Part shown: in pieces, positions 8,385 through 32,000 of the stretch
How positions within the stretch are numbered: the stretch's first letter is position 1
Layout: each line of letters starts with the position of its first letter
Source of the DNA: Candidatus Micrarchaeum sp.
Lineage (GTDB): Archaea; Micrarchaeota; Micrarchaeia; Micrarchaeales; Micrarchaeaceae
Direction: 5' to 3'
Length of the DNA: 32,000 nt
NCBI RefSeq assembly: GCF_016806735.1
Contig: NZ_CP060530.1
Coordinates: 840,001-872,000 of the forward strand
Made by a program: the position numbers and the translations under genes
The notes under the pieces: model-generated
Told to the model about the DNA's origin: nothing
The model's database searches: none
Seen by the model: only the letters and a program-made list of their open reading frames with translations

Positions 8385-9359
8385 TTATTTTTGAGGTTTT
8401 TTGTTGTAGTTCTCGTATTTTGTTGAGCGCTGCCATATCTCTTCGAATCTGGAAAGAGCCTCAGACCTGTTTATCGAGACTATGTGCTCGCTCTTCTTGT
8501 TTATTATGTTTATTGGAGGTATCTTGTACGCACTCTGCGAGTCTATTATAAGCCTTTCGTGCTGCTGCTGCGCGTCCGTATCCGACATAACCCTGAGCTC
8601 TAGTGAAACTCCCTTGTTGGACAACTCCTCTTTGAAATCGAAATAGCTCCTTTCAAAGTGGGAACCTAGCCTGTTTGCGCTTGTCAGCACCCTTACCAAG
8701 CTGTGGCCCTGTTCGTTGCCGTTCAGCAGCAGAAGAAGGTTTTCCACTGCCTTGTTGTCAAAGTGCATGTCGAGTATGCTCATGTCTCCTGAGAGCTTTG
8801 CAAAGAACTTCCTGGAGAGCACTAACATATTGGAATACGGTGTATCCGGGTTTATGTTTATCGGCCTTGCTGAATGCGTAGAATGCCTCCTGCTTGAATA
8901 TGAAAGCTCTAGAGAGCCAGCTATTATTCCCAGTGCAACGCCAAGGAACGGGCCAAGGCCCCGTATCGGGCCGAGGTAGAAGTCGGTGTTTAACACCCCG
9001 AGCAGCATCCCGAATACAACAGAAGAGAAGATAAGGCCGATGCCAAGCACCCTATAGCTTTGCTTTCCCAATAGCCATATCGCGCCTATTGCGAACATTA
9101 TCAATGCAAATGGCAGCATCACGTATGTGATGTGCACTGCTATGACTACTGCAGAAGATTCTGACAGTGATGCGAGGAGGGTGTTGGACGGGGTAATGTT
9201 GTATTCCGTTATCATTGAAGTTATGCCCTTTACCAAGCCCACAGAATATGACAGGATTTGCATGTAGTAGAAGTCAGAAAGCATCGCTATGAATCCTGCA
9301 AGAAGAGCCGAATACGCTAGGATTGCGTGATTTGATCCCTTGGACAGATTATCCTGCAT
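8385..9359 (-). CDS. Polytopic membrane protein with cytoplasmic C-terminal domain (cassette A, divergent partner)
   Basis: The ORF track gives 8385..9404. I prefer the ATG at 9359 (MQDNLSKGSNHAILAY...). It matches the N-terminal length of the paralogue starting at 23175 (MEIQRPSRSAHGRLAY...) and lies about 25 nt from a TTTAAATA box. Four to five hydrophobic helices, then a soluble domain of about 170 aa ('ILDMHFDNKAVENLL...VRVLTS...LELRV...HERLIIDS'). Confidence 0.65.
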   Translation of the reverse strand: MQDNLSKGSNHAILAYSALLAGFIAMLSDFYYMQILSYSVGLVKGITSMITEYNITPSNTLLASLSESSAVVIAVHITYVMLPFALIMFAIGAIWLLGKQSYRVLGIGLIFSSVVFGMLLGVLNTDFYLGPIRGLGPFLGVALGIIAGSLELSYSSRRHSTHSARPININPDTPYSNMLVLSRKFFAKLSGDMSILDMHFDNKAVENLLLLLNGNEQGHSLVRVLTSANRLGSHFERSYFDFKEELSNKGVSLELRVMSDTDAQQQHERLIIDSQSAYKIPPINIINKKSEHIVSINRSEALSRFEEIWQRSTKYENYNKKPQK

Positions 9360-9379
9360 ATGCATTACCAATAATTCAG

Positions 9380-9389
9380 ATTTAAATAG
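9380..9389 (-). promoter_or_regulatory. TATA-like box (CTATTTAAAT on the minus strand) for the cassette A membrane-protein gene
   Basis: Centred about 25 nt upstream of the ATG at 9359, which fits a leaderless transcript. It lies inside the longer ORF-track version of the gene. Confidence 0.35.
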
Positions 9390-9596
9390 CGCGGGCTCTT
9401 TCATCGCCCCAAGCGTATTTAGGCTGCAAACAATACCGTAAGCTTTATGCGCAAAGAAAAATTATATAGGTTTGTCCTTTTTATATAAGCGTATATTATT
9501 CTATAAGTAATTTTTGCTAGTAACATCAGCCATATTTAGAATAGGAGTGTATGTAAGTTTATTATAAATAGCATTCAAAACCACTATTGGATAATA

Positions 9597-9606
9597 ATTT
9601 AAATAT
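9597..9606 (+). promoter_or_regulatory. TATA-like box ATTTAAATAT upstream of the cassette A operon
   Basis: Same 10-mer as at 1171-1180, centred about 34 nt upstream of the ATG at 9635, within a 230-bp AT-rich divergent intergenic region. Confidence 0.35.
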
Positions 9607-9609
9607 CGT

Positions 9610-9623
9610 CCGGAATGTTCCGG
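9610..9623. promoter_or_regulatory. Perfect palindrome CCGGAA-TG-TTCCGG between TATA-like box and start codon
   Basis: 6-bp arms with a 2-nt spacer. It is the only GC-rich element in the AT-rich intergenic region, 12 nt upstream of the ATG at 9635. Candidate operator site. Confidence 0.3.
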
Positions 9624-9634
9624 GGTAATATGCC

Positions 9635-11677
9635 ATGAACTTGCATGCAATGCTTATGTCATTTGTAATTTTTGCCAGTATTGCAATACTCCCGTCTTAT
9701 TCTTTCGCAAGCAGCAACTCAAGCTCCACGCTCAGTGCCAATGTAGTGGTTGGATGCCCTTTCTCATTAAGCATGGACTTGCCAAGCAACAGCCTTACCG
9801 TTATACCTGAATATGGCAATTACCTAATTAGTTATGAATTGAAGCCCTTGGTAAACTGCAGGGTTCCCGGAATGGATGGAAAATTGCTAATAGAATCAAG
9901 CAATGGAAGCATAGCCGAATCGGAAAGTGCCAGCGTTAAGTCGTTCAATTCCTTAGTAAACGGCACGGTTGGGTTTAATGCGTCGGAATTGGAAATTGGT
10001 AATTACAACGCTTCCCTTGGCTTTAAAAACAATCAGACTGAAAATTCAATAACTTCGGCTTTCACCGTTTTGGCCCCAGTAAGTATCGTGCTTAAGAACT
10101 TCACTGTCAGCAGCTCAGTGACTATCGGATCGCCTGTAAACTTTTATATTGAGCTTTCGAACATTGGCAATTATAGCCCCAGTGACATAGAACTATTTAT
10201 CAACTCTACCGCTCCAGGTGCTAGGATAATTACAAATGATGTAAAAAACATAACTGCTTATCCCTCCACAGAGAATGTAACACTTACTGAGTATGGATTT
10301 GCAGGTAAGCCAGGCACTTATACTGCATACGCTTATGCAGAATATAAAAAGTCGGCCCATGGAAGAAACTACACCAAGAGCAACGTATTGAACTTCACAT
10401 ATACGGTAAACTTACCAAGCCATTCTGCACCCCATCCGATAACAGTACCGCCAACTCCGATACCGAAGATACCCAAGGCAAATCTCACAACGGTACCATT
10501 ATACTTAACTAGTGTGCCGAATGCGACAATAGGCACCAGCATAGGCATATCAAACCCGTCAAATTCCACAGAGACCATAAACTTCACCGTTCCGTCATAT
10601 CTAAGCAATATCGTAAAGCTTTCAGAGAATAGCATCGCCTTGAGCGCTGGTGGAACCGTTTCGGTAAATTTGCAAATAAACAGCAGAAACCTCAGCTCTG
10701 GCATCTATAACATACCGATAAATGTAACTGCTACTCTCAACAACAGGACTAGCGTTTATACCGATTACGTTACTTATTCGGTCTCAGGGAAGGAACCCAA
10801 CAAACCGGTTATAAACACGGCAGTTGAGCTGCTCAACAACACTAACGATGGATACATAGTCGTTAGCATAAGCACCCCAAGCAACGTGACCATAACCAAC
10901 GGCACGGCAATAACCTATTTGCCGCAGGGGCTAATACCAAACGAGAGCTACATGGACGCGTACGGCGTACCAAACAACATAACTGAAAGCAACGGCTATT
11001 ATTACATAGAATGGCATATAAGCAAGCTTGGCCCTAACCAGAACATATACGCATACGTATACGTGAAGAGGCCCAGCAGCCAGCTCCTGATGAGCGGCAT
11101 AACCACCAATATATTCGTTCCGACATCGAGCACTGCTAGCATATTGAGGCTGCTTTATGTTGATTCCCCGACTTTCAGGACTTACGGCAATGGAACAACC
11201 GAAGTGGAATTGTTGTATACTGGATCATACGCAGAAAACATTACATTCGGCCTCACAGGGCCATATTATATGACAATACACAACTCTTCTCAGACAGTGC
11301 TTGCGGTTCCAAACCAAGTACTGTATATTTACTTCAACCAGCATGCGGGAGGAATAGCCGGCACTTCGAATGAGAAACTCTATATAACTGCGCCGAACGC
11401 AGCGCTTAACTACTCGGTAGCACTTATAGTGATGCCAAGCCCAGTCAACACCACAACAACCACTACAATAAAGCCAAACGCGCTTGCAACCGCGTTGAAT
11501 TCCATAGGCAATGTAGCACGTAAGTATTTTATTGTTTTAATAATTGTAGCTCTGGCAATAATATTAAGCCTTGCTTATTATTCTTACAATAATAAATCGC
11601 ACTATAAGAGGGATAGGATAGATAGGATAGAAAGTATAAAGAAACAGATAAAAAGGAATTTGGATGAAAAGCGATAG
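9635..11677 (+). CDS. Exported type-I membrane glycoprotein with CARDB/Ig-like beta-sandwich domains (cassette A)
   Basis: Signal peptide 'MNLHAMLMSFVIFASIAILPSYSFA'. CARDB-like stretch 'FTVSSSVTIGSPVNFYIELSNIGNYSPSDIELFIN' and Pro-rich linker 'HSAPHPITVPPTPIPKIPK'. Further beta-rich domains, C-terminal TM 'YFIVLIIVALAIILSLAYYSY' and a basic tail of about 30 aa. Dense N-x-S/T sequons. Paralogue at 23267-25273. Confidence 0.7.
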   Translation: MNLHAMLMSFVIFASIAILPSYSFASSNSSSTLSANVVVGCPFSLSMDLPSNSLTVIPEYGNYLISYELKPLVNCRVPGMDGKLLIESSNGSIAESESASVKSFNSLVNGTVGFNASELEIGNYNASLGFKNNQTENSITSAFTVLAPVSIVLKNFTVSSSVTIGSPVNFYIELSNIGNYSPSDIELFINSTAPGARIITNDVKNITAYPSTENVTLTEYGFAGKPGTYTAYAYAEYKKSAHGRNYTKSNVLNFTYTVNLPSHSAPHPITVPPTPIPKIPKANLTTVPLYLTSVPNATIGTSIGISNPSNSTETINFTVPSYLSNIVKLSENSIALSAGGTVSVNLQINSRNLSSGIYNIPINVTATLNNRTSVYTDYVTYSVSGKEPNKPVINTAVELLNNTNDGYIVVSISTPSNVTITNGTAITYLPQGLIPNESYMDAYGVPNNITESNGYYYIEWHISKLGPNQNIYAYVYVKRPSSQLLMSGITTNIFVPTSSTASILRLLYVDSPTFRTYGNGTTEVELLYTGSYAENITFGLTGPYYMTIHNSSQTVLAVPNQVLYIYFNQHAGGIAGTSNEKLYITAPNAALNYSVALIVMPSPVNTTTTTTIKPNALATALNSIGNVARKYFIVLIIVALAIILSLAYYSYNNKSHYKRDRIDRIESIKKQIKRNLDEKR

Positions 11678-12476
11678 CAATTTTATAGTAAGCGATAGGC
11701 CTTACATACTTAGGATATCTGCCCAGAAAGGAGGTGTGGGCAAGACAACCATAGCAGTGAACCTTTCTGTCGCGCTGAAATTGAAAGGCTATTCCGTATT
11801 GTTAGTGGATGCAGACGCGTCGAATCCATCCGTAGGGCTTCATCTTGGGCTCGAAAATTCTACAGGAGGATTCATAGACCTCTTGAAGGGAAAGGCTAAT
11901 TTAGAATATACCGTAATTACGCACGGGCCCACAGGGCTTGCAGTAATATGCAGCCCCATAAGCATGCAGGCCTTCGGAATGAATGAGCATGAAGTGGAAG
12001 TCGCGTACAATACCCTCAAGAAATCGGATTATGACATCGTAATAGTCGACACGCAACCGGGATATTTCCCTGATGTAATAACAAGGAAGATAGACCATAC
12101 GCTTATAGTAACAAATCCGGACATGCCTAGCTACATGAGTGCATTGAGGCTTTCCGAGTATTTTTCTAGCAGGAAAGTCCCAAACATGCTGCTTGTGAAC
12201 AGGGTAAGCAATAAAAAATATGAGATAAACATAAAGGAAATAAGGGAAACCTACGAAGGGGAAATAGCAGCAATAGTGCCTGAAGACGAAATAGTACCTG
12301 TGAGTATAGCCTCCAAGATACCGGCTTTCTTGCTTAGCCCAAAAAACAGGTTCAGCAAAGCGATTTTAGATCTTGCTGAAAAGTTGATAGAGGAATCCGG
12401 AATCCCGAAAGCTGGCGATTCTGCATATATCACAAAAACTGACAAGCATAAGCCAGGCGCAGGCCGCAAAAAATAG
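11664..12476 (+). CDS. MinD/ParA-family (SIMIBI) P-loop ATPase (cassette A)
   Basis: Deviant Walker A 'SAQKGGVGKTT', 'VLLVDAD' and Walker B 'DIVIVDTQPG'. No signal peptide or TM segment. The start overlaps the upstream stop by 14 nt. Paralogue at 25274-26092. Confidence 0.85.
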   Translation: MKSDSNFIVSDRPYILRISAQKGGVGKTTIAVNLSVALKLKGYSVLLVDADASNPSVGLHLGLENSTGGFIDLLKGKANLEYTVITHGPTGLAVICSPISMQAFGMNEHEVEVAYNTLKKSDYDIVIVDTQPGYFPDVITRKIDHTLIVTNPDMPSYMSALRLSEYFSSRKVPNMLLVNRVSNKKYEINIKEIRETYEGEIAAIVPEDEIVPVSIASKIPAFLLSPKNRFSKAILDLAEKLIEESGIPKAGDSAYITKTDKHKPGAGRKK

Positions 12477-12553
12477 AAATATTGCATTTATTGCAAGGAT
12501 CATTGAATTTGTATTTTGCCGTATGCAATTCATGAATATTATGCAAATGGGAG

Positions 12554-15500
12554 ATGGAAATGAAGGGATACCTAATCACAATATGCATTTTTATTATGGC
12601 CCTTTCAATCTCATCGGCACAGGCTTTAGGAACAGCAAATTATAATTCGATAGTACCATCGCAAGCGAACAATCAAAACCAAAACGGAATAGGCAATACT
12701 TATCCGAACGGGTTAGCATATCCTGAAAATGAGCTTTCATCAATGTATTCCAATTTGTTCAACAAGAGCATGATAAAGGGCATAAACAGCCATTTTCTTG
12801 CCAATATTTCCAAAAATTTGGTAGCTTATGGCATAGGCCAGAGTTTTCAGAACGGCTCATACGTTTATAAAATAAACGCAGTGTATCCAAAAAACGGAGA
12901 TATAAATAGCATAGGAAACGAAACTTTTAGCCTGAGAATAATAAAGCCAATAGTTGGGAGTGACGGAAGTGTTATCCTGAAATCCAACTCTGCTTACATA
13001 CCGAGCATGATTAAGGTGCCTATAATATACAATGGAAGCAATCTGCTCTTGAACCTTTCTGTAAAACTCGATTCATCATATAAAAATGAGATAACAGACA
13101 TAGTATTGAGCAAAACACCCCCGCCGAACTTAGAAAGCCGGTTCAGCGGAACCCCATATTATTACATTCATGTAAATAGCTCGATAAACGACACGAATGT
13201 CATAGATGCAAATTACACTTTTGCAGTAAACAAAAGCTGGATAAATTCCCAGAATATAAGCCCAGGGCAGGTTGCCCTATATAAGTATGTGGGTGGCAAA
13301 TGGATGGAAATGCCAACCTTGCTGATAGGCAACAATTCCACTGCGTATTTTTACGATGGTGAATCTGATTCCCTATCCGATTACGTAATCTCATATTCTA
13401 CAGGCAGCGCAACGGGCAGCGCGAATCCGCTGAGTGTTACATTGCCCGCAGGCTACAAGCTTTACCTATGTGATGCAGGCGCGAACTACACTTTCTCAAC
13501 GACAGCGGCAAACAGCTGGACTGCTCTTCAAAATGCTACTTCCCCTTCAAGCCCGCCGCCGGCAGCTTCAGTAGGTTATCAGACAAACAATGTATGTACA
13601 GCATACACCCCGGCAATAAAGGGGCGCAGGAATGCTTATACAGTAGGCCTTGCAGTAGCAGGCATTGGCCTAAATATAACAAATTACAATTTTTATGGCG
13701 CATCGGCCAACAGCAGCACAACCGCAAGCTTGACGTATCCAGTCACAGTTAATGGCTCTTTTGTTGCCATACTTGTAGCTTCTGGTTATTACGGATTGAC
13801 AGGCTTGCCCACGGTCCCAAGCGGTTGCAGTATTCAGCAGATAACTACAAATGCTACAAGCTATGAATCTGCTTACATATCAACCTGCAATAACGTCCAA
13901 AAAGGAAGCTATAACGCAACTGCAAGCAACGGCGATGGAGGGGCAACAGTAATAGGATCTTTTGTATTCCCGCCAGGCAATGTAATATTGGATGACAACC
14001 CGACTGGAGCAGGAAGCATATTTACTAACAATAAGACTTATACTAATGGGCAGAACAGCTTGCTCTTAGGAAAAGGAGAGATATCTGCAAAGCCTGCGAA
14101 CAACTTTGTATTCACTAACTGGAGCGTTAGCAATGCGAACCTGACGGTGCAGAATGCATATGCGCAGACTACGAACCTGACAGTAGTCGGAAACGGAATA
14201 TTGACTGCAAATTACAACGGAATAACCACTTTCTCAGAAAGCGGGCTGCCTTCCGGAGCCACGTGGAGCGTTGTTTATGACGGAATAACCAACAGCAGCG
14301 CATTGAGTTCTATATCTTTTGACACTGTGCCAGGCAGCCACACTTTCGCAATAGCAAACGTGACGTACAACGGCAAAACATATATCGCAAAGCCGAGTTC
14401 TGGCAGTGTTGTTGCGGGAAACGTTACAAGCGTAGCATTCAGCGAGGAAGGAGTATTGTCTTTAGTAGTATCGTCTAACAGGACTGCATATGACACATCA
14501 GATATAGTAACTGCAACTGCGCCTCTGCCATCGCAAAGCATTGAGATATTGATAGGCCAGGGCACTGCAAAAGGCGTTCTTGTTTCATCAGGCACTGGAA
14601 GCGCATCGTGCAACCTTTACAGCACATGCAATGCAAATGTACCGTTGGCTGCAGGACTCTACAACGTTAGCGCATACCTTCCGTCCACAGGGAACGTAAT
14701 CAGCGAAGAGGTAAACATAACGAAGGCTTCGCCTTCATTAACTCTTTCAGTGCCTAATAGTTATGTTTATGATGGAAGCGGAGGAACCATAGATTTTGGG
14801 ATAAGTTCATACAACAATCAATTGCAAGGCACGCTTTACGTTAACAATGCAAGCGTAGCTTCCACATTTTCCAGCAATACTTACACAACATCTGCAAGCG
14901 TAGGAAACTACAGCATTGCGTTCAAAACAAGCGGCAATGTGAATTATACGAGTGCATCGAGAACGGGAAAATTCAGCATATACCCAAAGCTTTATACTGT
15001 AAATTATACTTCTGCAGGAGCAGTTGGGACAACCGATACTCTTTCCGTTAGCACTTCAACAGGTTATGATATTTATTTATGCGATGGTGGAACAAGCTAT
15101 GGTACGCTAACTTATACTACAGGAACCATAGACCTTTCTAACACTTATTCTTATATAGGAAACCAAACAACAAATACGTGCACTGAAACTACAACCGGTC
15201 CGGATCTTGCCGAGGCAATACTAGGAGTTAAAGCTTTGCATACTTATACTTTATACGATTCTTCAGGAACCGCAACCGACAGCTTTACTTATAATGTAGT
15301 AAAGAACGATTCGTTTGTGGCAATAATGCTGTCTTCGGGATATTATGGCCTTTCTTCTGCACCTACAGTTCCAAGCGGCTGCATAGAAAAGGTTTATGAT
15401 ACTGGAGGCGATACATACGAAAGCAGCTACATAGCAATATGCCAATCGCAGATAGCTGGGCAGTATACAGTAAGCTCTTCTTCTACGCTTGGAGGGTATA

Positions 15501-17914
15501 TAACTGCTGGCGCTTATGTATTTTCACCTTACCAACTGGTTCTTGATGACAACCCAATAGCAGGAACAATAACGACAAATGGAAAGACCTTTGCCAATGG
15601 GCAAACGACCAATGTTATAGGAACTGGAACAATAACTGCGAATCCGCCGAAGAATTTTGTCTTTACTAACTGGGGCGTGAGCAACGCAAACCTGACGGTG
15701 CAGAATGCATATGCGCAGACGACGAACCTGACAGTAGTCGGAAACGGAATATTGACTGCAAGTTACAACGGAATAACTACTTTCTCAGAAAGCGGGCTCC
15801 CTTCCGGAGCCCCGTGGAGCGTTGTTTATGACGGAATAACAAACAGCAGTGCATTGAGTTCTATATCTTTTGACACTGCGCCAGGCAGTTACACTTTCGC
15901 AATAGCAAACGTGACGTACAACGGCAAAACATATATCGCAAAACCCAGTTCCGGCAGTGTTGTTGCGGGAAACGTTACAAGCGTAGCATTCAGCGAGGAA
16001 GGAGTATTGTCTTTGGTATTATCGTCAAATAAAACAGCATACGACATATCAGACATAGTCACAGCAAGAGCGCCGCTGCCATCGCAAAGCATTGAGATAT
16101 TGATAGGCCAGGGCACGGCAAAAGGTGTTCTTGTTTCATCAGGCACTGGAAGCGCATCGTGCAACCTTTACAGCACATGCAATGCAAATGTACCGTTGGC
16201 TGCAGGACTCTACAACGTTAGCGCATACCTTCCGTCCACAGGGAACGTAATCAGCGAAGAGGTAAACATAACGAAGGCTTCGCCTTCATTAACTCTTTCA
16301 GTGCCTAATAGTTATGTTTATGATGGAAGCGGAGGAACCATAGATTTTGGGATAAGTTCATACAACAATCAATTGCAAGGCACGCTTTACGTTAACAATG
16401 CAAGCGTAGCTTCCACATTTTCCAGCAATACTTACACAACATCTGCAAGCGTAGGAAACTACAGCATTGCGTTCAAAACAAGCGGCAATGTGAATTATAC
16501 GAGTGCATCTAAAACTGGCAATTTTTCCATCGCCCCAAAACTGTATACAGTGAACAGTACCGAGGCATTGAATTCGAGCACCACTGACACATTAACAGCT
16601 TATGCCCATGCAAATTATCTAACCTACATATGCGATGGCGGGGCTGGGACTGCAGCGGTTACGTACACAACCGGAACTGTAAGCCAATATTCCGGAGGTG
16701 ATGACTCTTATATAGGCGAGCAGACAACCGATGCGTGCACCGAGACCACAACAGGGCCGGATCTTGCTGAGGCTGCAGCAGGAGTCTATGCAAAACCTTC
16801 TTATTCCCTTTATAAAGGCTCATACACTTATGGAGGCACGCTTGATTACAAAGTAAATGAAACTGGATCGCTCGTAGTTGTTGCAATAAGCTCAGGCGGA
16901 GGAGAAATATCAGGAATTCCTAGCGCTCTCAGCGGCTGCTATAGCAAAGGCATAGAATCCGGCAGCGATGGCCTTGAATCAGCCTACATTGCGATATGCC
17001 AGGACCAGAAAGCAGGCTCATACTCGATTGCTGAGAGCGTTTCTAGTGGAGAAAATTTTGCAATGGCGGCTTATGTATTTCCGCCATACGCTTTGACAAT
17101 GGATGACAATCCAGTAGCTGGAACCATAACCACTAATGGCAAGACATTTGCAAACGGACAGACAACAAACGTAATAGGTACCGGGACAATAACTGCGAAT
17201 CCGCCGAAGAATTTTGTATTCACGAACTGGAGCGTGAGCAACGCAAACCTGACGGTGCAGAATGCATATGCGCAGACTACGAATCTCACTGTTGTGGGAA
17301 ATGGAATATTGACTGCAAGTTATAACGGGATAACCACATTTTATGAATCGGGATTGCCTTCAGGGACTCTGTGGAACTTAACTTATGATGGATTCAAAAA
17401 CGCAAGCACAGGAAATTACATAAGCTTTGACACCGTTCCTGGACCACACAGCTATGCAGTAGGAAACGTGCTCATAAACGGCTATAATTATACACCATCG
17501 GTTTATTCCAGCACTTTGACCGCAGGAAATACAACAATAATAAAATTTACTCCGCCCGTTTGCACTATATCGCTTAACACGAATACGATATCCTTTGGGA
17601 ACCTCGACCCAGGCACGATATATCCTGACAGCGTGCAGATTATTGACACCAATAGCGGAGACGCTACGGCAAACATTCTGCTATCAGGCACAAATTGGAC
17701 AAATCCGACAATAAATTTCGGAGCAACAAATACTTCATGGAGCATAACCTCGTTGAGTTCATTTGGCCCGAATTTGCTTTCAAGAAGCCCAAGAAACACA
17801 GCAATAAGCATAGGGCCAAGCTCGTCGAACAGCATATACTTCGGCTTGAATGTTCCAGGGGCAATACCTGCAGGAACGTACACACAGACAATAGTCATAG
17901 AAAACAGCTGCTGA
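12554..17914 (+). CDS. Giant secreted repeat glycoprotein / putative adhesin (1,786 aa, cassette A)
   Basis: Signal peptide 'ITICIFIMALSISSAQA'. PGF-pre-PGF-like segment (about 13157-13399: 'YYYIHVNSS...FAVNKSWINSQNISPGQVALYKYVGGKWMEMPTLLIGNNSTAYFYDGESDSLSDYVISYS'). Three super-repeats of about 517 aa follow. Each has a Cys-containing module ('YLCD[AG]G...PSGC...ESAYI..C') and an InlB-B-repeat-like module ('ANPPKNFVFTNWSVSNANLTV...LTVVGNGILTASY'). Each also has an 'ESGLPSG..W' beta-sandwich module of the kind seen in Thermoplasmata/Sulfolobales surface proteins; the first two units also carry Ig-like modules (absent from the third). Ends in a 120-aa Cys-bracketed module. No TM anchor. Confidence 0.8.
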   Translation: MEMKGYLITICIFIMALSISSAQALGTANYNSIVPSQANNQNQNGIGNTYPNGLAYPENELSSMYSNLFNKSMIKGINSHFLANISKNLVAYGIGQSFQNGSYVYKINAVYPKNGDINSIGNETFSLRIIKPIVGSDGSVILKSNSAYIPSMIKVPIIYNGSNLLLNLSVKLDSSYKNEITDIVLSKTPPPNLESRFSGTPYYYIHVNSSINDTNVIDANYTFAVNKSWINSQNISPGQVALYKYVGGKWMEMPTLLIGNNSTAYFYDGESDSLSDYVISYSTGSATGSANPLSVTLPAGYKLYLCDAGANYTFSTTAANSWTALQNATSPSSPPPAASVGYQTNNVCTAYTPAIKGRRNAYTVGLAVAGIGLNITNYNFYGASANSSTTASLTYPVTVNGSFVAILVASGYYGLTGLPTVPSGCSIQQITTNATSYESAYISTCNNVQKGSYNATASNGDGGATVIGSFVFPPGNVILDDNPTGAGSIFTNNKTYTNGQNSLLLGKGEISAKPANNFVFTNWSVSNANLTVQNAYAQTTNLTVVGNGILTANYNGITTFSESGLPSGATWSVVYDGITNSSALSSISFDTVPGSHTFAIANVTYNGKTYIAKPSSGSVVAGNVTSVAFSEEGVLSLVVSSNRTAYDTSDIVTATAPLPSQSIEILIGQGTAKGVLVSSGTGSASCNLYSTCNANVPLAAGLYNVSAYLPSTGNVISEEVNITKASPSLTLSVPNSYVYDGSGGTIDFGISSYNNQLQGTLYVNNASVASTFSSNTYTTSASVGNYSIAFKTSGNVNYTSASRTGKFSIYPKLYTVNYTSAGAVGTTDTLSVSTSTGYDIYLCDGGTSYGTLTYTTGTIDLSNTYSYIGNQTTNTCTETTTGPDLAEAILGVKALHTYTLYDSSGTATDSFTYNVVKNDSFVAIMLSSGYYGLSSAPTVPSGCIEKVYDTGGDTYESSYIAICQSQIAGQYTVSSSSTLGGYITAGAYVFSPYQLVLDDNPIAGTITTNGKTFANGQTTNVIGTGTITANPPKNFVFTNWGVSNANLTVQNAYAQTTNLTVVGNGILTASYNGITTFSESGLPSGAPWSVVYDGITNSSALSSISFDTAPGSYTFAIANVTYNGKTYIAKPSSGSVVAGNVTSVAFSEEGVLSLVLSSNKTAYDISDIVTARAPLPSQSIEILIGQGTAKGVLVSSGTGSASCNLYSTCNANVPLAAGLYNVSAYLPSTGNVISEEVNITKASPSLTLSVPNSYVYDGSGGTIDFGISSYNNQLQGTLYVNNASVASTFSSNTYTTSASVGNYSIAFKTSGNVNYTSASKTGNFSIAPKLYTVNSTEALNSSTTDTLTAYAHANYLTYICDGGAGTAAVTYTTGTVSQYSGGDDSYIGEQTTDACTETTTGPDLAEAAAGVYAKPSYSLYKGSYTYGGTLDYKVNETGSLVVVAISSGGGEISGIPSALSGCYSKGIESGSDGLESAYIAICQDQKAGSYSIAESVSSGENFAMAAYVFPPYALTMDDNPVAGTITTNGKTFANGQTTNVIGTGTITANPPKNFVFTNWSVSNANLTVQNAYAQTTNLTVVGNGILTASYNGITTFYESGLPSGTLWNLTYDGFKNASTGNYISFDTVPGPHSYAVGNVLINGYNYTPSVYSSTLTAGNTTIIKFTPPVCTISLNTNTISFGNLDPGTIYPDSVQIIDTNSGDATANILLSGTNWTNPTINFGATNTSWSITSLSSFGPNLLSRSPRNTAISIGPSSSNSIYFGLNVPGAIPAGTYTQTIVIENSC
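14102..17365 (+). repeat. In-frame tandem super-repeats, period 1551 then 1557 bp, mosaic identity (giant gene A)
   Basis: The anchor 'ctgacggtgc' occurs at 14141, 15692 and 17249. Block 14576-14958 is base-identical to 16127-16509 (383 bp, compared by eye). Flanks carry scattered substitutions, and the second half of each unit is strongly diverged. Confidence 0.85.
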
Positions 17915-17930
17915 ATATGGAGTGTGCCAA

Positions 17931-18620
17931 ATGCGATTCTTTGAGTTAATTGCTATTGCAACGCTTTTGGCAGTTTTTTCTTTTTCTATTCTTTCAACTA
18001 CGGCACACGCGCAATTGGGAGAAGTTGCTGGTGAGCCTACATTCTATGTAAACATAAGCGGAACCTACAGCTACAATTACACCTTCATAAACCAGGGATC
18101 AACGCCCATACCTTTTAAGACCATAATAACAAATTTCAGGACTGCAGCAAAAAATGCTACTGCACCGATAGTCACAGCTTCCCCGATGTCTGGCACCATA
18201 CCTCCAAACTCTCAGATCAAAGTAAGAGTAAACATATACCTTCCGTCCAAGAATAATACACCAGGGATGGAATGGCAGGGAGTGCTTGAAGTAGTCGTAA
18301 ATTCTACTTCTAGCAGTACTGGTGGCGCAGTAATAGATGAGGGAGTTGCAAAAGTAGTTACCATAGTGGCAACCGCACCAAAGCCCAATTACACCGCTGA
18401 AATTCTAGTAATACTTGCAATAGCGGTTATTGTCATAGTAGTTGCAGCATTCGCATACATGAAAAGGTCCAAGAAGACGGCAAAAGGCAAGTCACAGATT
18501 TCTGGGGCAAAGGCCAGAGCTACAGTAAAGAAGCCTTCATCCGCAGGCAGGAAGAAAGCATCAAAGAGCAGGAAAAAAGGCACACGCAGGAAGAGGAAAA
18601 ACAGCAGTAATAAAAGATAA
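17931..18620 (+). CDS. Exported beta-rich protein with C-terminal TM anchor and poly-basic cytoplasmic tail (cassette A)
   Basis: The ORF track starts at GTG 17922. The ATG at 17931 (MRFFELIAIATLLAVFSFSILSTTAHA) with GGAG at 17914-17917 is more likely. Beta-rich ectodomain of about 130 aa, TM 'AEILVILAIAVIVIVVAAFAYM', then about 50 aa of K/R-rich tail ('KKASKSRKKGTRRKRKNSSNKR'). Confidence 0.6.
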   Translation: MRFFELIAIATLLAVFSFSILSTTAHAQLGEVAGEPTFYVNISGTYSYNYTFINQGSTPIPFKTIITNFRTAAKNATAPIVTASPMSGTIPPNSQIKVRVNIYLPSKNNTPGMEWQGVLEVVVNSTSSSTGGAVIDEGVAKVVTIVATAPKPNYTAEILVILAIAVIVIVVAAFAYMKRSKKTAKGKSQISGAKARATVKKPSSAGRKKASKSRKKGTRRKRKNSSNKR

Positions 18621-18657
18621 TGCTCACGTTTATATCCCTTCCATGAGAAGATAAATT

Positions 18658-20514
18658 ATGGACTATTTATTCAGGTTTGACAAGCCGAGGCCCAATCAGG
18701 AAGCCATGATAGGCGACGTTTATTCCGCGCTTGAACATAGGCGCGACATATTCATAAACGCGCCGACAGGCATAGGCAAGACCGACGCATCTCTTGGAGC
18801 TGCTCTCACGTTCGCGCTGAAGAACGGGCTTGACGTTTTCTTCCTTACGCCGAAGATATCGCAGCACAAGATAGCGATGGAAGCGGTTTCCGGAATAAAA
18901 AAGAAATTCGGGCTTGATTTCAGCTTTGCAGACATAGTTGGAAAGCGCAACATATGCATAAACGACAAGGTAAACGCCATAGAAAGCGACGCTTTTTACG
19001 GCTCGTGCGAAAGCCTGGTCAAGGCAGGAAAATGCACATATTTCTCGCGATCGAAGAATTTTAGCACAGACGATAAAGGGCTTGCAGATGCCATGGAGAA
19101 CGGGCACAATGCGCTTCTAGACTATTCCTATGGGAAAGGAGTATGCGCTTATGAGATAGCAGCCAAGTACGCGAAGAACTGCAGGGTCATAATAGCAGGG
19201 TATTCGCATTTATTGAATCCTTACAACAGCGGCGCTTTCCTGAAGAAGATAGGGCACAGCATAGACAATGCGATTATAATATGGGACGAGGCGCACAACC
19301 TCATAAACATAGCGAATTCATATTTAAGCACTTCGATATCAGAGCTTGGAATAGATGCGGCCGAAAGGGAATTGAAGGCGATAAACAACAGCATAGATCT
19401 TGATTACCTGAAGTTCGCAATGAAGAAGCTCGCCGCAAAGAAGCTTTCAAAAGGGATGAGCGAGGCCTTGGTTGACAAATCGGACATGTCTGAATTCATG
19501 GAAAGCGAGTATGAAAAATTGATAGATGATCTTGAGAAGGCGGGTCTTGAGTACATACAGGCAAAAAACGCCAAGCGCTCTTCCATACTGCATATAGCAA
19601 GGTTCCTAAGGGGATTCCTTGATGCGGATGAATCCGCCGCGAGGATAATAAAGGCGAGGAACGGGCTCGCAAGGCTCAACGTTAGCTGCTTATACCCCGA
19701 TAGGGCACTGCCGATATTGCAGGAGGCCTATGCAAATGTATTCATGAGCGCCACGATGGAGCCCATGAGGATGTATTCTGATATGTTCAAGGTGGCAAAC
19801 TCTGAGATGAGAAGCTATGCGTCCCCATTCCCAAAGCACAATAAGGCCGCATTCATAGATAATGAGTTTACGACAAAATTCTCACAAAGGTCCAACGAGC
19901 AGTATATGAAGATGGCAAAAAGGATAGAGGAGATAAAGGACAGCGTGCCTGGGAGCGTAGCCGTATTCTTCCCGAGCTTTTCCGTGCTCGAGGGCATATC
20001 AAGGCACGTGAATGTTGCGAAAAAATATGTGCAGAGAAGGGAGATGCAAAGCCAGGCTACAGACGCATTGATGAAGCGCTTTACAGAGGACGACGGCTCG
20101 ATGCTAATGGCAGTCATGGGCGGCAGCTTCAGCGAGGGCATAGATTACAAAAACAACTCGATAAAGGGCATAATCATAGTGGGCATACCGCTAACTGCGC
20201 CTGACCTTGAATTGAAGCTGAGGATTGCATATCTCGACAAGCGCTTTGAAGGCAGGGGAATGGATTACGCTTACATAATACCTGCGATAGTGCGCTCGGT
20301 CCAGGCGGCAGGAAGGGCGGTAAGGAGCGAGAGGGACAGGGCTGTGCTCGTCTTTATGGATAAAAGGTATTCGTGGCGCATGTATATGGCTGCCATATCC
20401 AACAGCATAGAGATCTCGGACTCTAAGGATTACATGAAATCAATAAGGTTCTTCTGGGACTTAAATGATGTAGTAGATAAGGTAGTAAAGGCCAAGCCCG
20501 ATAAGAACTCCTAA
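18658..20514 (+). CDS. xpd: XPD/Rad3-type Fe-S DNA helicase
   Basis: Walker A 'NAPTGIGKT' and DEAH box 'WDEAHN'. Four Cys between them (NIC..GSC..GKC..GVC) fit the XPD 4Fe-4S domain. C-terminal helicase motif 'QAAGRAVRSERD'. Confidence 0.9.
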   Translation: MDYLFRFDKPRPNQEAMIGDVYSALEHRRDIFINAPTGIGKTDASLGAALTFALKNGLDVFFLTPKISQHKIAMEAVSGIKKKFGLDFSFADIVGKRNICINDKVNAIESDAFYGSCESLVKAGKCTYFSRSKNFSTDDKGLADAMENGHNALLDYSYGKGVCAYEIAAKYAKNCRVIIAGYSHLLNPYNSGAFLKKIGHSIDNAIIIWDEAHNLINIANSYLSTSISELGIDAAERELKAINNSIDLDYLKFAMKKLAAKKLSKGMSEALVDKSDMSEFMESEYEKLIDDLEKAGLEYIQAKNAKRSSILHIARFLRGFLDADESAARIIKARNGLARLNVSCLYPDRALPILQEAYANVFMSATMEPMRMYSDMFKVANSEMRSYASPFPKHNKAAFIDNEFTTKFSQRSNEQYMKMAKRIEEIKDSVPGSVAVFFPSFSVLEGISRHVNVAKKYVQRREMQSQATDALMKRFTEDDGSMLMAVMGGSFSEGIDYKNNSIKGIIIVGIPLTAPDLELKLRIAYLDKRFEGRGMDYAYIIPAIVRSVQAAGRAVRSERDRAVLVFMDKRYSWRMYMAAISNSIEISDSKDYMKSIRFFWDLNDVVDKVVKAKPDKNS

Positions 20515-21432: not shown

Positions 21433-21445
21433 ATATACACCTTAG

Positions 21446-22390
21446 TCAATCCGCCTCGTGATGGACAAGCTTTATTATCCCCTGCCTTGGCCTGTATATG
21501 TCGCCAGAGCGCTCAAGCTCCGATAGATATTTGCTTGCGGTTGTGGAGTCTATGCCTGCGGCTTCGGCATCCTCTATCACTTTTTGTATCTTTATGTTGC
21601 TGTCCGACTCCTCAAGCTTCTTTATTATGTTAAGTATTGAATTCATGCGGTCTACCTTCTCCCTCGGCATTCCGGTCAATATCGTATCTATGTCTATGCG
21701 GCCTCCCGTATCCAATGCCAATGACTTAAGCATGAACCTGCTAAGCTCTATTGCAGTCTCAGAATCGGATAATTCAACCACGTCAGAAAGCCTTGACTTC
21801 GCGCTCGCCTCGCTCATCCTCACCAATCCCTCTATCTGCCTCGGGGTTATGGGAACGGCGCCCTGCCTTTGGCCAGTCTTTCTCAAGTCGACATAATATT
21901 TCTGTAAATATTCGCTGGCCTCCTGGCTCAGCCTTGGCGATACGTTCTTGCGTGCATATGCAATGTATTTCCTTAACAAATCCGAGTCTATAGGAGGCTC
22001 TTCGACTTGCTCAAACCCTTTTATGTCAGCAAGCCTTGCGCCTGCCGCCTCATGCTGCATAAGTATGTGCTTTGCTATGTTCCTATCCGTGTCCTCGTCC
22101 ATCACGTCGGTTATTGGGAATATGAGGTCGAACCTTGACAATAGCGTAGGAGGTATGTCGAACTGCTCAGCGGGATACTGGTGGGGATCGAACCTTCCGA
22201 ATTTCGGGTTCGCAGCAGCAAGCACAGCAGCCCTTGCACTGAATGTGGCTATTATACCCGCTTTGGCTACGCTTATGGTCTGCGATTCCAAGGCCTCGTG
22301 AAGCGCGGCCCTGTCGTCCTGGCTTATCTTGTCGAATTCGTCTATGCACACTATGCCGCCACTGCCCAGGACCATGGCTCCTGCCTTCAA
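21446..22390 (-). CDS. mcm: MCM replicative helicase, C-terminal half only (5'-truncated; probable pseudogene or gene remnant)
   Basis: Starts inside the AAA+ core: 'LKAGAMVLGSGGIVCIDEFDK' (Walker B), 'ALHEALESQTISVAKAGI', 'AAANPKFGRF' and the arginine finger 'LSRFDLIF', then a winged-helix-like tail. The N-terminal domain and Walker A are absent. The ORF-track start is a TTG. In-frame MCM-like sequence ('AERDDFSEGGWT') continues upstream to about 22430 and then stops. Confidence 0.8.
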   Translation of the reverse strand: MKAGAMVLGSGGIVCIDEFDKISQDDRAALHEALESQTISVAKAGIIATFSARAAVLAAANPKFGRFDPHQYPAEQFDIPPTLLSRFDLIFPITDVMDEDTDRNIAKHILMQHEAAGARLADIKGFEQVEEPPIDSDLLRKYIAYARKNVSPRLSQEASEYLQKYYVDLRKTGQRQGAVPITPRQIEGLVRMSEASAKSRLSDVVELSDSETAIELSRFMLKSLALDTGGRIDIDTILTGMPREKVDRMNSILNIIKKLEESDSNIKIQKVIEDAEAAGIDSTTASKYLSELERSGDIYRPRQGIIKLVHHEAD

Positions 22391-23175
22391 TGTCCAGCCG
22401 CCCTCGGAGAAATCGTCGCGCTCTGCAACTTGTTTTTCATTTCCTCCTCGAAATCAGTATAACCCCTGTCGAAATGCGCTCCGAGCCTTTCAGGCCCAGA
22501 CAGTATCCTTACATTTTTGACGTTTGATGCGCTGTCATTGAACAATGCGAGCATGTTTTCCATGGCCTTGCTGTCGAAATGCATGTCCAGTATGCTTATG
22601 TCGCCCTTAAGCCTTGCGAAAAAGTCCTTTGACAGCAACAGCATGTTCGAGTATGGGGTTTCCGGATCTATGCTTATGGACCTTAACGAATGGGCCTCCT
22701 GCAACCTGCTCGCTATAGTAATGCCCTTTATGCCTACGTATATGCCCAATGCAACGCCTATGAAAGGCGCCAGGGTTATTATGGGCCCTATGTAGAAGTC
22801 AGCGTCCATCAGGGCAAGCAGCATACCGAATATCAAAGATGAAAAAAGCATCCCTACGCTCAATGTCTTGAGGTTCTGCCTTGTTATGAGCAGCATTGCG
22901 CCTATGCTGAACATTATGAGCGTGAATGGCAGCATAACATATGTTATATGGACAGCTATTGCAAGCGCGGAAGTGCCCTCGAGTGATGTCAATAATGTGT
23001 TTGAAGGGGTTATGTTGTATGTAGTTATAATGGAAGTAATTCCCCTGACCACTCCTACGCTATATGACAGGAACTGCATGTAGTAGAAATTCGAAAGCAT
23101 GGCTATGAATCCTGCGGCGAGCGCAATGTACGCCAACCTTCCATGTGCACTTCGTGATGGTCGCTGAATTTCCAT
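22387..23175 (-). CDS. 3'-truncated paralogue of the cassette membrane protein (cassette B)
   Basis: Collinear with 8385-9359 ('AAGFIAMLSNFYYMQFLSYSVG...ILDMHFDSKAMENML...FDRGYTDFEEEMKNK'). It then diverges into 13 unrelated codons that are out-of-frame mcm sequence before the stop. It lacks about 75 C-terminal residues present in copy A. Start taken as ATG 23175; the ORF track uses TTG 23196. Confidence 0.6.
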   Translation of the reverse strand: MEIQRPSRSAHGRLAYIALAAGFIAMLSNFYYMQFLSYSVGVVRGITSIITTYNITPSNTLLTSLEGTSALAIAVHITYVMLPFTLIMFSIGAMLLITRQNLKTLSVGMLFSSLIFGMLLALMDADFYIGPIITLAPFIGVALGIYVGIKGITIASRLQEAHSLRSISIDPETPYSNMLLLSKDFFARLKGDISILDMHFDSKAMENMLALFNDSASNVKNVRILSGPERLGAHFDRGYTDFEEEMKNKLQSATISPRAAGH

Positions 23176-23207
23176 ATTTATAGTTTTGAAAGGCAAGTAA
23201 TAAAGTT

Positions 23208-23225
23208 CTAATTATTTATAATTAG
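23208..23225. promoter_or_regulatory. 18-bp AT-rich perfect palindrome CTAATTAT-TT-ATAATTAG in the cassette B divergent promoter region
   Basis: 8-bp arms with a 2-nt spacer. It contains TTTATA and its complement TATAAA. It lies 42 nt from ATG 23175 (minus strand) and 50 nt from ATG 23267 (plus strand). Could be a bidirectional TATA element and/or an operator. Confidence 0.3.
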
Positions 23226-23266
23226 ATGAATATGCTTTAGGTATTTGGATGACAAGGTAATAGTAT

Positions 23267-26092: not shown

Positions 26093-26159
26093 ACTTTAAT
26101 CAATAATCTGCATACAGTGGAATAGTTGATTTTAGCTTTCAAAAAGAGTTGATAATGCA

Positions 26160-31565: not shown

Positions 31566-31576
31566 GAGTAGGCAGG

Positions 31577-31581
31577 TTTTT
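31577..31581 (+). terminator. Short oligo-T tract after giant gene B
   Basis: TTTTT 12 nt after the TAA at 31563-31565. It is weak, and the next ORF starts 39 nt later, so at most partial termination. Confidence 0.2.
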
Positions 31582-31619
31582 AAGCTTTATTAATAAAAGA
31601 ATATTCGGAAGGTGATTTA

Positions 31620-32000
31620 TTGGATATATTAAAGAGAAATTTAAAGGCATCGCTCGCGATTCTAGCAAGCTTACTAATTATGAGCGGCACCATAGCATTG
31701 GCATTGGGAAACGTGGCTTTTGCAAGCTCATCGAATACAGTTACAGCAAATGTTGCTGTCGAAGGGGTGTGCTACATAAGCCTAAGCCCTAATGCGATAT
31801 CGTTTGGTAGCTTATACCCTACGGCAACGCATGCTGACAATGTTTTGGTAACTGATAGCGACCCGTACGGAAATGTGGCGGCCAATGTATTAGTATCAGG
31901 TACTGATTGGGCAAGTTCAACTTACAACTTTGGTGTATCTAATACCACATGGAGCGCTACATCGTCAAACACGTTCTTAACTACAACTCAGCTTACAAAT
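31620..32000 (+). CDS. Small exported protein, free-standing paralogue of the giant proteins' C-terminal module (partial, runs off the window)
   Basis: Absent from the ORF track because it has no stop inside the window. TTG start 4 nt after GGTGA (31611-31615). Hand translation: LDILKRNLKASLAILASLLIMSGTIALALGNVAFASSSNTVTANVAVEGVCYISLSPNAISFGSLYPTATHADNVLVTDSDPYGNVAANVLVSGTDWASSTYNFGVSNTTWSATSSNTF... It parallels 'PPICTISLSSNSVSFGSLGPDSTYPDNVMVTDYNKGSAEAHVFVSGTNWT...FGVSNTTWSS'. Confidence 0.6.
   Translation, partial: MDILKRNLKASLAILASLLIMSGTIALALGNVAFASSSNTVTANVAVEGVCYISLSPNAISFGSLYPTATHADNVLVTDSDPYGNVAANVLVSGTDWASSTYNFGVSNTTWSATSSNTFLTTTQLTN

Follow-up and report, generated by a model that had tools for sequence, protein, structure and literature searches.

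Among described surface systems, the closest in organisation to the locus analyzed here is the WxL/Csc cluster of the Firmicutes, in which a small domain-only protein is encoded together with a large protein that has variable binding domains towards its N-terminus and carries the same domain at its C-terminus, and with an immunoglobulin (Ig) partner anchored by a transmembrane (TM) helix. The locus lies in a 32,000-nt stretch of Candidatus Micrarchaeum sp. (contig NZ_CP060530.1, positions 840,001 to 872,000 of the forward strand; hereafter the window), whose source organism is an acidophilic DPANN episymbiont. Its first cassette encodes an exported multi-Ig protein, which we call A, a MinD/ParA-type ATPase, a giant secreted protein whose C-terminal domain we call the handle, and a membrane-tethered protein, D, modelled as a single PapD/MSP-like Ig domain. 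These genes form a real and conserved linked module that is undescribed in the searchable literature, and two conserved gene pairs build it: A with the MinD-like ATPase, and one or more handle-domain proteins with D.

The cluster architecture of WxL/Csc is found again in the Micrarchaeum module, a resemblance in organisation and not evidence of homology. In WxL clusters, a beta-hairpin of the WxLIP partner (DUF916 plus DUF3324) is predicted to enter the WxL domain (PMC10599100, PMC9772566). The WxL domain PF13731, with its two Trp-x-Leu motifs, was not found in the 24 + 81 handle proteins even with E cut-offs as loose as 0.1-1. As for WxLIP, one of the 16 A homologues weakly matches WxLIP_HBD (E=1.5e-4) and the D model matches the WxLIP structure 9i1y (E=8e-5, rank 48), with no DUF916 match. 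The Micrarchaeum module is archaeal and has no peptidoglycan to bind; it also has the tethered PapD-like D as an extra protein, and a MinD-like ATPase coupled to the anchor, for which WxL clusters have no counterpart.

Chaperone-usher systems (archaic sigma, Csu-type, SCPU pilins) resemble the module in the PapD-like fold of D, in small subunits with an N-terminal strand of alternating hydrophobic residues followed by a Cys, and in a large adhesin whose C-terminal, subunit-type domain lacks that strand. The motif of the last strand of the handle, FG..P....G.Y...I.I, is also reminiscent of SCPU. However, no usher is present in the window or among the recurrent neighbour families, an outer membrane is lacking in this archaeon, and the chaperones of these systems have two domains whereas D has one and is tethered to the membrane. 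Moreover, chaperone-usher assembly is ATP-independent, while the Micrarchaeum module has a dedicated ATPase.

That ATPase belongs to the same family as TadZ/CpaE, FlhG/FleN, BcsQ, the Haloferax MinD4 and archaeal FleN/MinD (arCOG00589, arCOG05608). As with these organisers, it is encoded inside a surface-structure locus, here with large Ig-rich adhesins, and most members of its clade have, by inspection, a putative membrane-targeting helix. The known organisers serve a type IV filament, a flagellum or a synthase, whereas the partner coupled to this ATPase is a single-pass, Sec-exported Ig stalk with a cytoplasmic motif. The window does not encode a type IV filament core of the archaeal pilus or Tad kind, as PilB/FlaI, TadC/FlaJ and any signal peptidase of class III are all missing from it; the genuine pilins of the phylum read QSAMEYLMTYGWAIL, whereas the handle proteins have no class III signal peptide.

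The archaeal donor-strand filaments, among them threads, bundling pili, cannulae and Tat-dependent bundling pili, reportedly consist of beta-rich subunits exported by Sec or Tat. In the threads of Sulfolobus (Saci_0406) and the bundling pili of Pyrobaculum (AbpA/AbpB), beta-rich subunits come with a larger Ig-rich partner proposed to act as a cap or anchor, and no ATPase is reported in their loci (PMC9715654, PMC9245690). The module shares with them exported beta-rich subunits encoded beside a larger Ig-rich partner; however, we detected no sequence similarity between the handle and archaeal donor-strand filament subunits, and the handle also tags giant multi-domain cargo. In this last respect it recalls the C-terminal domain of the type IX secretion system (T9SS) and the PGF-CTERM/archaeosortase pathway, where a conserved module also sits at the extreme C-terminus of diverse secreted cargo, and the giants carry PGF-pre-PGF domains. 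It differs from them in having no PGF-CTERM helix, archaeosortase or T9SS components, in the existence of stand-alone and tandem handle-only proteins, and in the Cys pair that brackets the domain. Beyond the ATPase superfamily and the WxL-like cluster architecture, the module shows no clear defining feature of the chaperone-usher, WxL, type IV filament or sortase systems.

Conservation of the gene linkage across Micrarchaeota

With one genome taken per GTDB species, a pattern scan picked up 27 loci from Micrarchaeota, below which identity fell sharply to bacterial ParA-like proteins; the loci were annotated by open reading frame (ORF) calling and BLAST. An A homologue was found immediately upstream of the ATPase in 18 of these 27 species-level loci, and in 15 of the 17 cases measured the gap between the two genes was -11 to +22 nt. 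The ATPases of the remaining loci were at most 37% identical and had unrelated, partly conserved gene contexts. Where the contig continues, relatives of the giant's C-terminus and a D homologue come after the A-ATPase pair, apart from three loci that are weighed with the mechanism below. A handle gene stands immediately before D in ten loci (L001, L006, L007, L010, L011, L012, L013, L016, L018 and L027) as well as in cassette 1, and in one more (L028) a small ORF lies between the two.

The initial annotation had proposed that the ATPase and its exported neighbours are functionally linked, and the comparison with other genomes agrees with it: the order A, ATPase, giant or small handle proteins, and D recurs across Micrarchaeota, and the nearest homologues of the ATPase are not ordinary Min or Par proteins with unrelated neighbours but an A-linked clade of their own. 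In a neighbour-joining tree the A-linked ATPases were monophyletic, apart from the free MinD-like paralogues of the same phylum. The 124 non-cassette neighbours of the 18 linked loci were assorted housekeeping genes, with no family occurring more than four times, and neither a type IV filament core nor an usher was among the families that recur there. Both cassettes in the window come from one duplication and are therefore not independent evidence of linkage; chance linkage is excluded because the order is conserved in other genomes. The best explanation of these results is a module specific to Micrarchaeota.

Components of the module

Cassette 1 and its features are laid out in the window as follows.
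8385..9404, minus strand: Memb1, divergent from the other cassette 1 genes (ORF map)
9405..9634, no strand: divergent intergenic region, AT-rich (GC 0.41), with TATA-like runs visible
9635..11677, plus strand: A1, exported multi-Ig 'stalk/anchor' protein
11664..12476, plus strand: ATPase1, MinD/ParA-type, with a deviant Walker A
12554..17914, plus strand: Giant1, secreted 1,786-aa adhesin-like protein
17561..17911, plus strand: handle domain of Giant1 (aa 1670-1786), from alignments and profile search
17931..18620, plus strand: D1, with a signal peptide, PapD/MSP-like beta-sandwich, TM helix and Lys/Arg-rich tail

The ORF map confirmed the five genes at the coordinates first assigned to them, apart from the start of the membrane-protein gene: the gene exists, but its ORF reaches 9404, and the earlier start at 9359 is an in-frame internal ATG. 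D does start at the ATG at 17931, where its homologues begin, though the ORF opens at a GTG at 17922. In a hydropathy scan, A, the giant and D each showed a hydrophobic segment at the N-terminus, A (aa 623-652) and D (aa 154-183) a single C-terminal TM helix, and the giant, which has no membrane anchor, no TM past its signal peptide. A, the giant and D carry 31, 60 and 7 NxS/T sequons, against 2 in the ATPase, and this density argues that the three proteins are extracellular. The promoters of cassette 1 presumably lie within 9405-9634; comparison of the intergenic regions of both cassettes found no conserved element common to this one and its cassette 2 counterpart.

The divergent polytopic membrane protein, first listed as a component, is not part of the conserved core. 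Memb1 has four predicted TM segments and a C-terminal soluble domain of ~170 aa, without a Pfam, NCBIfam or PDB match, and its homologues are confined to near-identical strains (L002) and cassette 2, being absent from the other loci. Since it is not conserved beyond near-identical strains, we regard it as an accessory or lineage-specific neighbour.

ATPase1 is a member of the MinD/ParA family (deviant Walker A, SIMIBI), as first proposed, with the KGGxGK[ST] signature in the form QKGGVGKTT (its QKGGVGKT at nt 11724-11747) and with AAA_31 (63.2 bits), CbiA (59) and ParA (49.7) all above the Pfam gathering scores. The signature Lys K22, G23-K27, D49, D51 and D129 are invariant in 29 ATPase sequences. 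Its best PDB matches are the archaeal MinD structures 1hyq, 1g3q and 1ion, and the ArsA/Get3 models match weakly. On the archaeal MinD model TIGR01969, ATPase1 scores 120.8 and ATPase2 101.8 bits, below the curated cut-off of 201.75, which none of the linked or free Micrarchaeota MinD-like paralogues reaches, all of them scoring 96-124 bits. The start of ATPase1 overlaps the stop of A1 by 14 nt, by which the two genes appear to be translationally coupled. By inspection, a C-terminal amphipathic helix of the MinD membrane-targeting type is present in most members of the A-linked clade, for example GFWGRLLGIFRR, GFWARLFGR, SFWQRFIQRFRKKY and GLIGWIRRILGI. A second MinD-like clade, unlinked to A (L017, L019, L026, L018:10517-11317 and others), has a different, partly conserved context and likewise ends in amphipathic helices.

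In A1, the signal peptide is followed by the N-terminal strand motif LSANVVVGC (aa 33-41, nt 9731-9757), the TM helix (nt 11501-11590) and then the cytoplasmic tail, which spans aa 653-680 (nt 11591-11674). Its homologues are 570-730 aa long (~670) and have the same signal peptide, C-terminal TM and basic tail. In the family alignment, the tail keeps the consensus PxYxxERxxxLxxxRExIKR at only 21-31% overall identity. The short basic tails had been suggested as the contact of the ATPase; the conserved motif makes this credible for the tail of A, while the tail of D is conserved in composition only. CARDB-like domains, also claimed at first, are undetectable in A1 itself; CARDB is matched in 7 of 16 A homologues, which also match NEW3 and further Ig families. 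A search of the PDB sequences with the A profile returned nothing meaningful.

Giant1 carries InlB B-repeats and, near its N-terminus as first described, a PGF-pre-PGF domain (aa 192-280, nt 13127-13393; 46.4 bits against a cut-off of 28). It ends in ...TQTIVIENSC without a TM helix, and it does not have the make-up of a PGF-CTERM substrate (PGF motif, TM, basic tail, ArtA). In line with what was noted at the outset, the window contains no type IV filament core, sortase, archaeosortase or PGF-CTERM. Giant1 contains ~2.5 tandem units of 1551 nt (517 aa; repeat region 14054-16500). Giant2, in cassette 2, has two near-identical 1551-nt copies over ~1.5 kb (repeat region 27810-31011; self-identity at the 1551-nt offset of 1.00 for segments starting at 27810-29160 and 0.97 at 29310). 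These repeats exceed the period limit of Tandem Repeats Finder and were detected by repeat search and offset self-identity. The giants of other strains are one unit shorter (P0155, 1269 versus 1786 aa; L001, 1286 versus 1801 aa), which suggests adhesin copy-number variation or assembly collapse.

The last ~120 aa of the giant recur, by BLAST, as stand-alone secreted proteins of 160-190 aa and as tandem pairs; the stand-alone genes number up to five in a single locus, L011. When 1.84 billion representatives were searched with its profile, 562 clusters were returned, 277 of them at E <=1e-10. The domain always lies at the extreme C-terminus, in single, tandem and 500-3421-aa architectures, and among the domains in the remaining regions of these proteins are PGF-pre-PGF, B-repeats, DUF2341 and Spherulin4. 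An invariant Cys opens the handle, and 166 of 172 proteins have Cys as their final residue. In the first handle domain of P0191 both Cys are lost together, and that of L027 is likewise missing the first Cys; this argues, on sequence grounds, for an intradomain Cys pair. A two-domain thioredoxin/glutaredoxin-like protein of the protein-disulfide oxidoreductase type (window 1213-1869, plus strand), which adjoins ftsZ, may be relevant to this pair.

The handle matched no Pfam family at threshold, and its profile returned no PDB sequence. Its commonest sub-threshold match was GH123_N_2 (21 of 81 members, final strands only), while those to SCPU, DUF4402 and Mfa_like_1 were rare, the SCPU matches all sub-threshold, with a best E of 0.004, in 2 of 81 and 3 of 24 members. 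As judged from these alignments, the handle represents a new C-terminal domain family tagging surface cargo. Two other identities were considered. For an SCPU/Csu pilin, the handle was compared by hhalign with 13 genuine SCPU proteins (an alignment made from six plasmid operons), and only the last 20 columns aligned (P=0.027), which we did not accept as evidence of homology. A type IV pilin identity of the small handle proteins was rejected, since they have no class III motif, and have instead variable hydrophobic regions ending in AxA-type sites before the strand. In another locus (L092:2590-18266), giant-like ORFs of 1822 aa and 3421 aa overlap by 58 nt and are probably one ~5200-aa surface protein that a frameshift or sequencing error has divided. 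This protein has tandem handles at its end and is encoded two genes upstream of a MinD-like ATPase, with two class III pilin genes at a distance of ~3 kb.

D1 has the mature N-terminus QLGEVAGEP, a beta-sandwich at nt 18039-18374, a TM helix at nt 18381-18470 and a tail at nt 18471-18617. Its homologues have in common a mature N-terminus of the form Q-h-G-E/Q-x-A-G, a GAVIxEGVAKI strand, the TM helix and the tail, which has 7-28 K/R in the last 50 aa (at least 12 in 12 of 14 homologues). An AlphaFold2 (AF2) model predicts the beta-sandwich at aa 40-151 with a pLDDT of 80-89. In a Foldseek search of this model against the PDB, the MSP, ASH and PapD-like domains come first, and the chaperones FaeE, CsuC, CupB2 and Caf1M also match (E 1e-6 to 5e-5), via their N-terminal domain only. 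An hhalign comparison with five archaic chaperones gave P=2.6e-4 and a probability of 42% over 83 columns, with the PapD_N hallmark motifs. D is thus modelled as a membrane-tethered single PapD/MSP-like Ig domain.

A strand motif, [ILV]xAx[ILV]x[ILV], stands directly before the first Cys in the small and tandem handle proteins, either at the mature N-terminus or after the preceding handle, and again at the mature N-terminus of A. It was found in 23 of 48 small handle proteins by a strict definition (37 by a relaxed one) and in 13 of 20 A proteins (16 relaxed), compared with 0 of 260 background neighbour proteins (7 relaxed). Before the handle of the giants it occurred in 3 of 71 cases, at least 2 of them with tandem handles, so that single-handle giants, unlike A and the small handle proteins, are without it. 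This distribution mirrors, by analogy, the logic of chaperone-usher systems, where shaft subunits have the N-terminal extension and the tip adhesin does not; it is circumstantial evidence.

Proposed mechanism and its alternatives

From the gene linkage, domain architecture, motif conservation, fold class of D and family of the ATPase, we infer how the module could function. Our tentative reading, to which we give a little less than an even chance, is a Sec-dependent surface-display module in which a MinD-like ATPase engages the membrane and the tail of A, and so clusters or positions the complexes. The cargo, which is the giant adhesin-like and predicted heavily glycosylated protein here and DUF2341 or Spherulin4 proteins elsewhere, would be exported by ordinary signal peptides without an anchor of its own. 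D, with its TM-tethered PapD/MSP-like Ig domain, would first hold the ~120-aa Cys-bracketed handle at the membrane, and the handle would then be docked on the multi-Ig stalk A, at the strand ([ILV]xAx[ILV]x[ILV]..C) of its membrane-distal N-terminus. The small handle-only proteins, which have the same N-terminal strand, could intercalate between cargo and A and so form short chains. Cassette 1 has no small handle protein, which implies a direct complex of giant and A, whereas cassette 2 has one. In the cytoplasm, the ATP-bound ATPase dimer would bind the membrane via its C-terminal amphipathic helix, together with the conserved helical motif in the ~30-aa tail of A, and would in this way cluster the complexes or position them, for instance where the host is contacted or at division. 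The overall interpretation first offered, a surface adhesin or filament module controlled from the cytoplasm by the ATPase, is therefore supported in part.

Several observations weigh against this display reading. Three loci (L014, L015 and L021) have the A-ATPase pair with no detectable handle or D genes within 10 kb, and one handle-bearing cargo (P0196) is on a short contig without cassette genes, so the A-ATPase and handle-D pairs are separable. ATPase1 itself has no obvious amphipathic helix and ends in a basic Lys/Arg/Gly-rich tail. The N-terminal domain of A, considered as a homologue of the handle, was rejected as such, since hhalign aligned the 22-column strand motif only (E=0.14). AF2 on the handle, with a 12-sequence alignment, reached a pLDDT of only 41, which makes a strand-accepting groove in this domain a conjecture. 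We know of no MinD/ParA proteins that act on Sec-exported Ig proteins, and no expression or proteome data for the A_DKE orthologues Micr_00917-00921 were found in the supplements or literature searched.

Micrarchaeota and other DPANN archaea live attached to their hosts, and the molecules of this contact are largely unknown. The module is a candidate attachment apparatus: it is conserved in the phylum, duplicated here, varies between strains in its adhesin repeats, and would display giant, predicted-glycosylated, lectin-like proteins. A cultivable system is available in Ca. Micrarchaeum harzensis with its Thermoplasmatales host. The module offers a testable case in which a short conserved tail motif would connect a MinD/ParA ATPase to a single-pass protein exported by Sec, a new handle family (562 clusters) that tags surface cargo, and perhaps an explanation for the anchoring and positioning of non-type-IV surface structures in archaea, a question left by the thread and bundling-pilus studies. 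A bolder version, in which the module is a new class of archaeal surface-appendage machinery (a Sec-dependent, strand-complementation adhesin or fibre, with a tethered PapD-like chaperone, a stalk anchor and a MinD-type ATPase that reads the anchor's tail motif and so controls placement or assembly across the membrane), seems to us possible but rather doubtful; if it is true, archaea would have here their first surface-display system that is coupled to an ATPase and is not of type IV, and the Micrarchaeota episymbionts a likely device for attaching to their hosts.

An alternative with a closer analogy to chaperone-usher pili is that the module builds a true extracellular filament by donor-strand complementation. 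Here the giant, with a pilin domain that only accepts a strand, would serve as tip adhesin, the small and tandem handle proteins as the shaft, joined via their N-terminal strands, A as the terminating membrane anchor and D as the chaperone; positioning or gating of the assembly site would fall to the ATPase. The handle-only genes, numbering up to five in L011, and the common tandem versions fit such a shaft, and the single-handle giants lack an N-terminal strand as the tip adhesins FimH, PapG and CsuE lack an N-terminal extension. The donor strand of CsuA/B, AVTGQVDVKLNIST, likewise precedes 'GC', D has a PapD-like fold, and some of the handle's weak sub-threshold Pfam matches fall on the pilin families SCPU, DUF4402 and Mfa_like_1. 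However, homology to SCPU was not supported by the comparison of hidden Markov models (P=0.027, last 20 columns), a shaft gene is missing altogether from cassette 1, and D is one Ig domain and not the two-domain boomerang of true chaperones. In addition, the conserved final strand and the bracketing Cys pair suggest that the handle is a complete fold, and the enzyme-like cargo domains (Spherulin4, DUF2341) and proteins of up to 3421 aa are more in keeping with an anchoring tag of general use than with the tip of a pilus. We consider a filament unlikely.

Two further explanations are improbable to a similar degree. The first takes the cassette for an accessory module, of adhesin and regulator, that belongs to a type IV filament system with its core encoded elsewhere; the ATPase would be a regulator of the FleN/MinD type, a role proposed for archaeal type IV pilus clades. 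FleN/MinD ATPases (arCOG00589), adhesins and S-layer-like proteins are indeed recurrent in archaeal type IV pilus loci, often apart from the core (PMC4858521; 10.64898/2026.04.22.720090), and L011, L021 and L092 have genuine class III pilin genes (QSAMEYLMTYGWAIL) no more than 10 kb away. But such genes are near only 2 of the 18 linked loci, which by a rough estimate is about chance for genomes of ~1 Mb; the small handle proteins have AxA-type cleavage sites in place of the class III motif of the phylum, and PilB/FlaI, TadC/FlaJ and a prepilin peptidase are absent from the window and from the recurrent families among the 124 neighbours of the 18 loci.

In the second, the ATPase is a division or partition MinD paralogue and A its membrane receptor or topological marker, the surface genes being only co-regulated. 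The best family matches of the ATPase are to archaeal MinD (TIGR01969, PDB 1hyq and 1g3q), its clade has a MinD-like membrane-targeting helix, ftsZ is found in the same window (115-1167), and in three loci the A-ATPase pair has no handle or D gene nearby. Micrarchaeota have, however, separate free MinD-like paralogues with a conserved, different context. Two diverged A-ATPase pairs in one genome, each with its own giant, are hard to fit to a single division function, and a ~600-aa, predicted-glycosylated ectodomain is needless in a cytoplasmic tether.

Very improbable, in our view, is a SIMIBI-type targeting or insertion factor that acts for A and D in the manner of Get3, the signal recognition particle (SRP) or FlhF. 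MinD/ParA proteins, Get3 and the SRP GTPases are one P-loop class, with the weak ArsA/Get3 matches of the ATPase in keeping with this, and A and D both end in a TM helix and a basic tail, C-terminal anchors and strongly basic tails of this sort being unusual; but the N-terminal signal peptides of A and D make them type I, Sec-routed proteins and not tail-anchored ones, and the ATPase, which matches MinD best and not ArsA, lacks the methionine-rich client groove and the insertions of Get3. Finally, an accidental neighbourhood or hitch-hiking duplicated island without functional coupling, to which the common origin of the two window cassettes and their unrelated housekeeping flanks might point, is effectively refuted by an order kept at 33-48% (ATPase) and 21-31% (A) identity, in different contexts and with overlapping start and stop codons.

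The second cassette and neighbouring genes

The cassette was initially said to recur at 22387-32000, and Memb2, A2, ATPase2 and Giant2 are indeed there; Memb2, however, is truncated, an extra small gene is present, and D is outside the window.
22387..23196, minus strand: Memb2, C-terminally truncated Memb1 paralogue, 269 versus 339 aa
23267..25273, plus strand: A2, A1 paralogue, 52% identity
25274..26092, plus strand: ATPase2, ATPase1 paralogue, 51-53% identity, starting right after the A2 stop codon
26160..31565, plus strand: Giant2, 1,801 aa, with a C-terminal handle and the near-perfect 1551-nt direct repeat
31620..32000 (cut by the window end), plus strand: start of a small stand-alone handle protein, with a signal peptide, the NTVTANVAVEGVC strand and the handle

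The full-length orthologue of this small handle protein has 177 aa (L001:6623-7156) and is followed by D2; the D gene of cassette 2 thus lies beyond the window end, and the D2-type orthologue is Micr_00921. ATPase2 is identical to P0008, annotated as 'ParA-like protein [Candidatus Micrarchaeum sp.]', and its amphipathic helix is reduced to a remnant, KKRIFGSKR. The loss of this helix in ATPase1 and its remnant in ATPase2 may mean an altered membrane association in this genus.

Memb2 abuts a 5'-truncated MCM gene (21446 on; C-terminal 314 aa, from the Walker B region), with a stop/start overlap at 22387-22390. From its sequence, this junction looks as if the unit Memb-A-ATPase-giant-(small)-D-XPD-SPP-MCM had been duplicated in tandem, where SPP is a presenilin-type signal-peptide peptidase. 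One assembly (L002, GCA_027316705.1) is 100% identical to window 21570-29359, including the duplication junction, and in L001 cassette 2 is followed by XPD-SPP-MCM, 97.6% identical to window 18651-22353. In the window, the SPP gene (20461-21432, minus strand) converges on an XPD-like helicase (18658-20514, plus strand) with a 3' overlap of 54 nt, and the XPD-SPP-MCM trio comes after D in other strains too.

The S-layer protein of Micrarchaeum, SLP_Mh (Micr_00292), has 978 aa (~100 kDa), belongs to PF05123 and is of top abundance (10.1101/2021.04.28.441871). PF05123 (S_layer_N) matched none of the cassette proteins, which are not SLP_Mh. Upstream of cassette 1, the gene at 6425-8269 (minus strand) encodes a protein that is exported and anchored in the membrane; it has a C-terminal proteolytic domain of the Lon-protease (S16) type, 28 sequons, and, at its C-terminus, a TM helix followed by a basic tail. 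We did not count it as a component because it was found near the cassette in only one other locus, L011, where a 40%-identical Lon-like homologue lies three genes upstream of A; this protease might process surface proteins.

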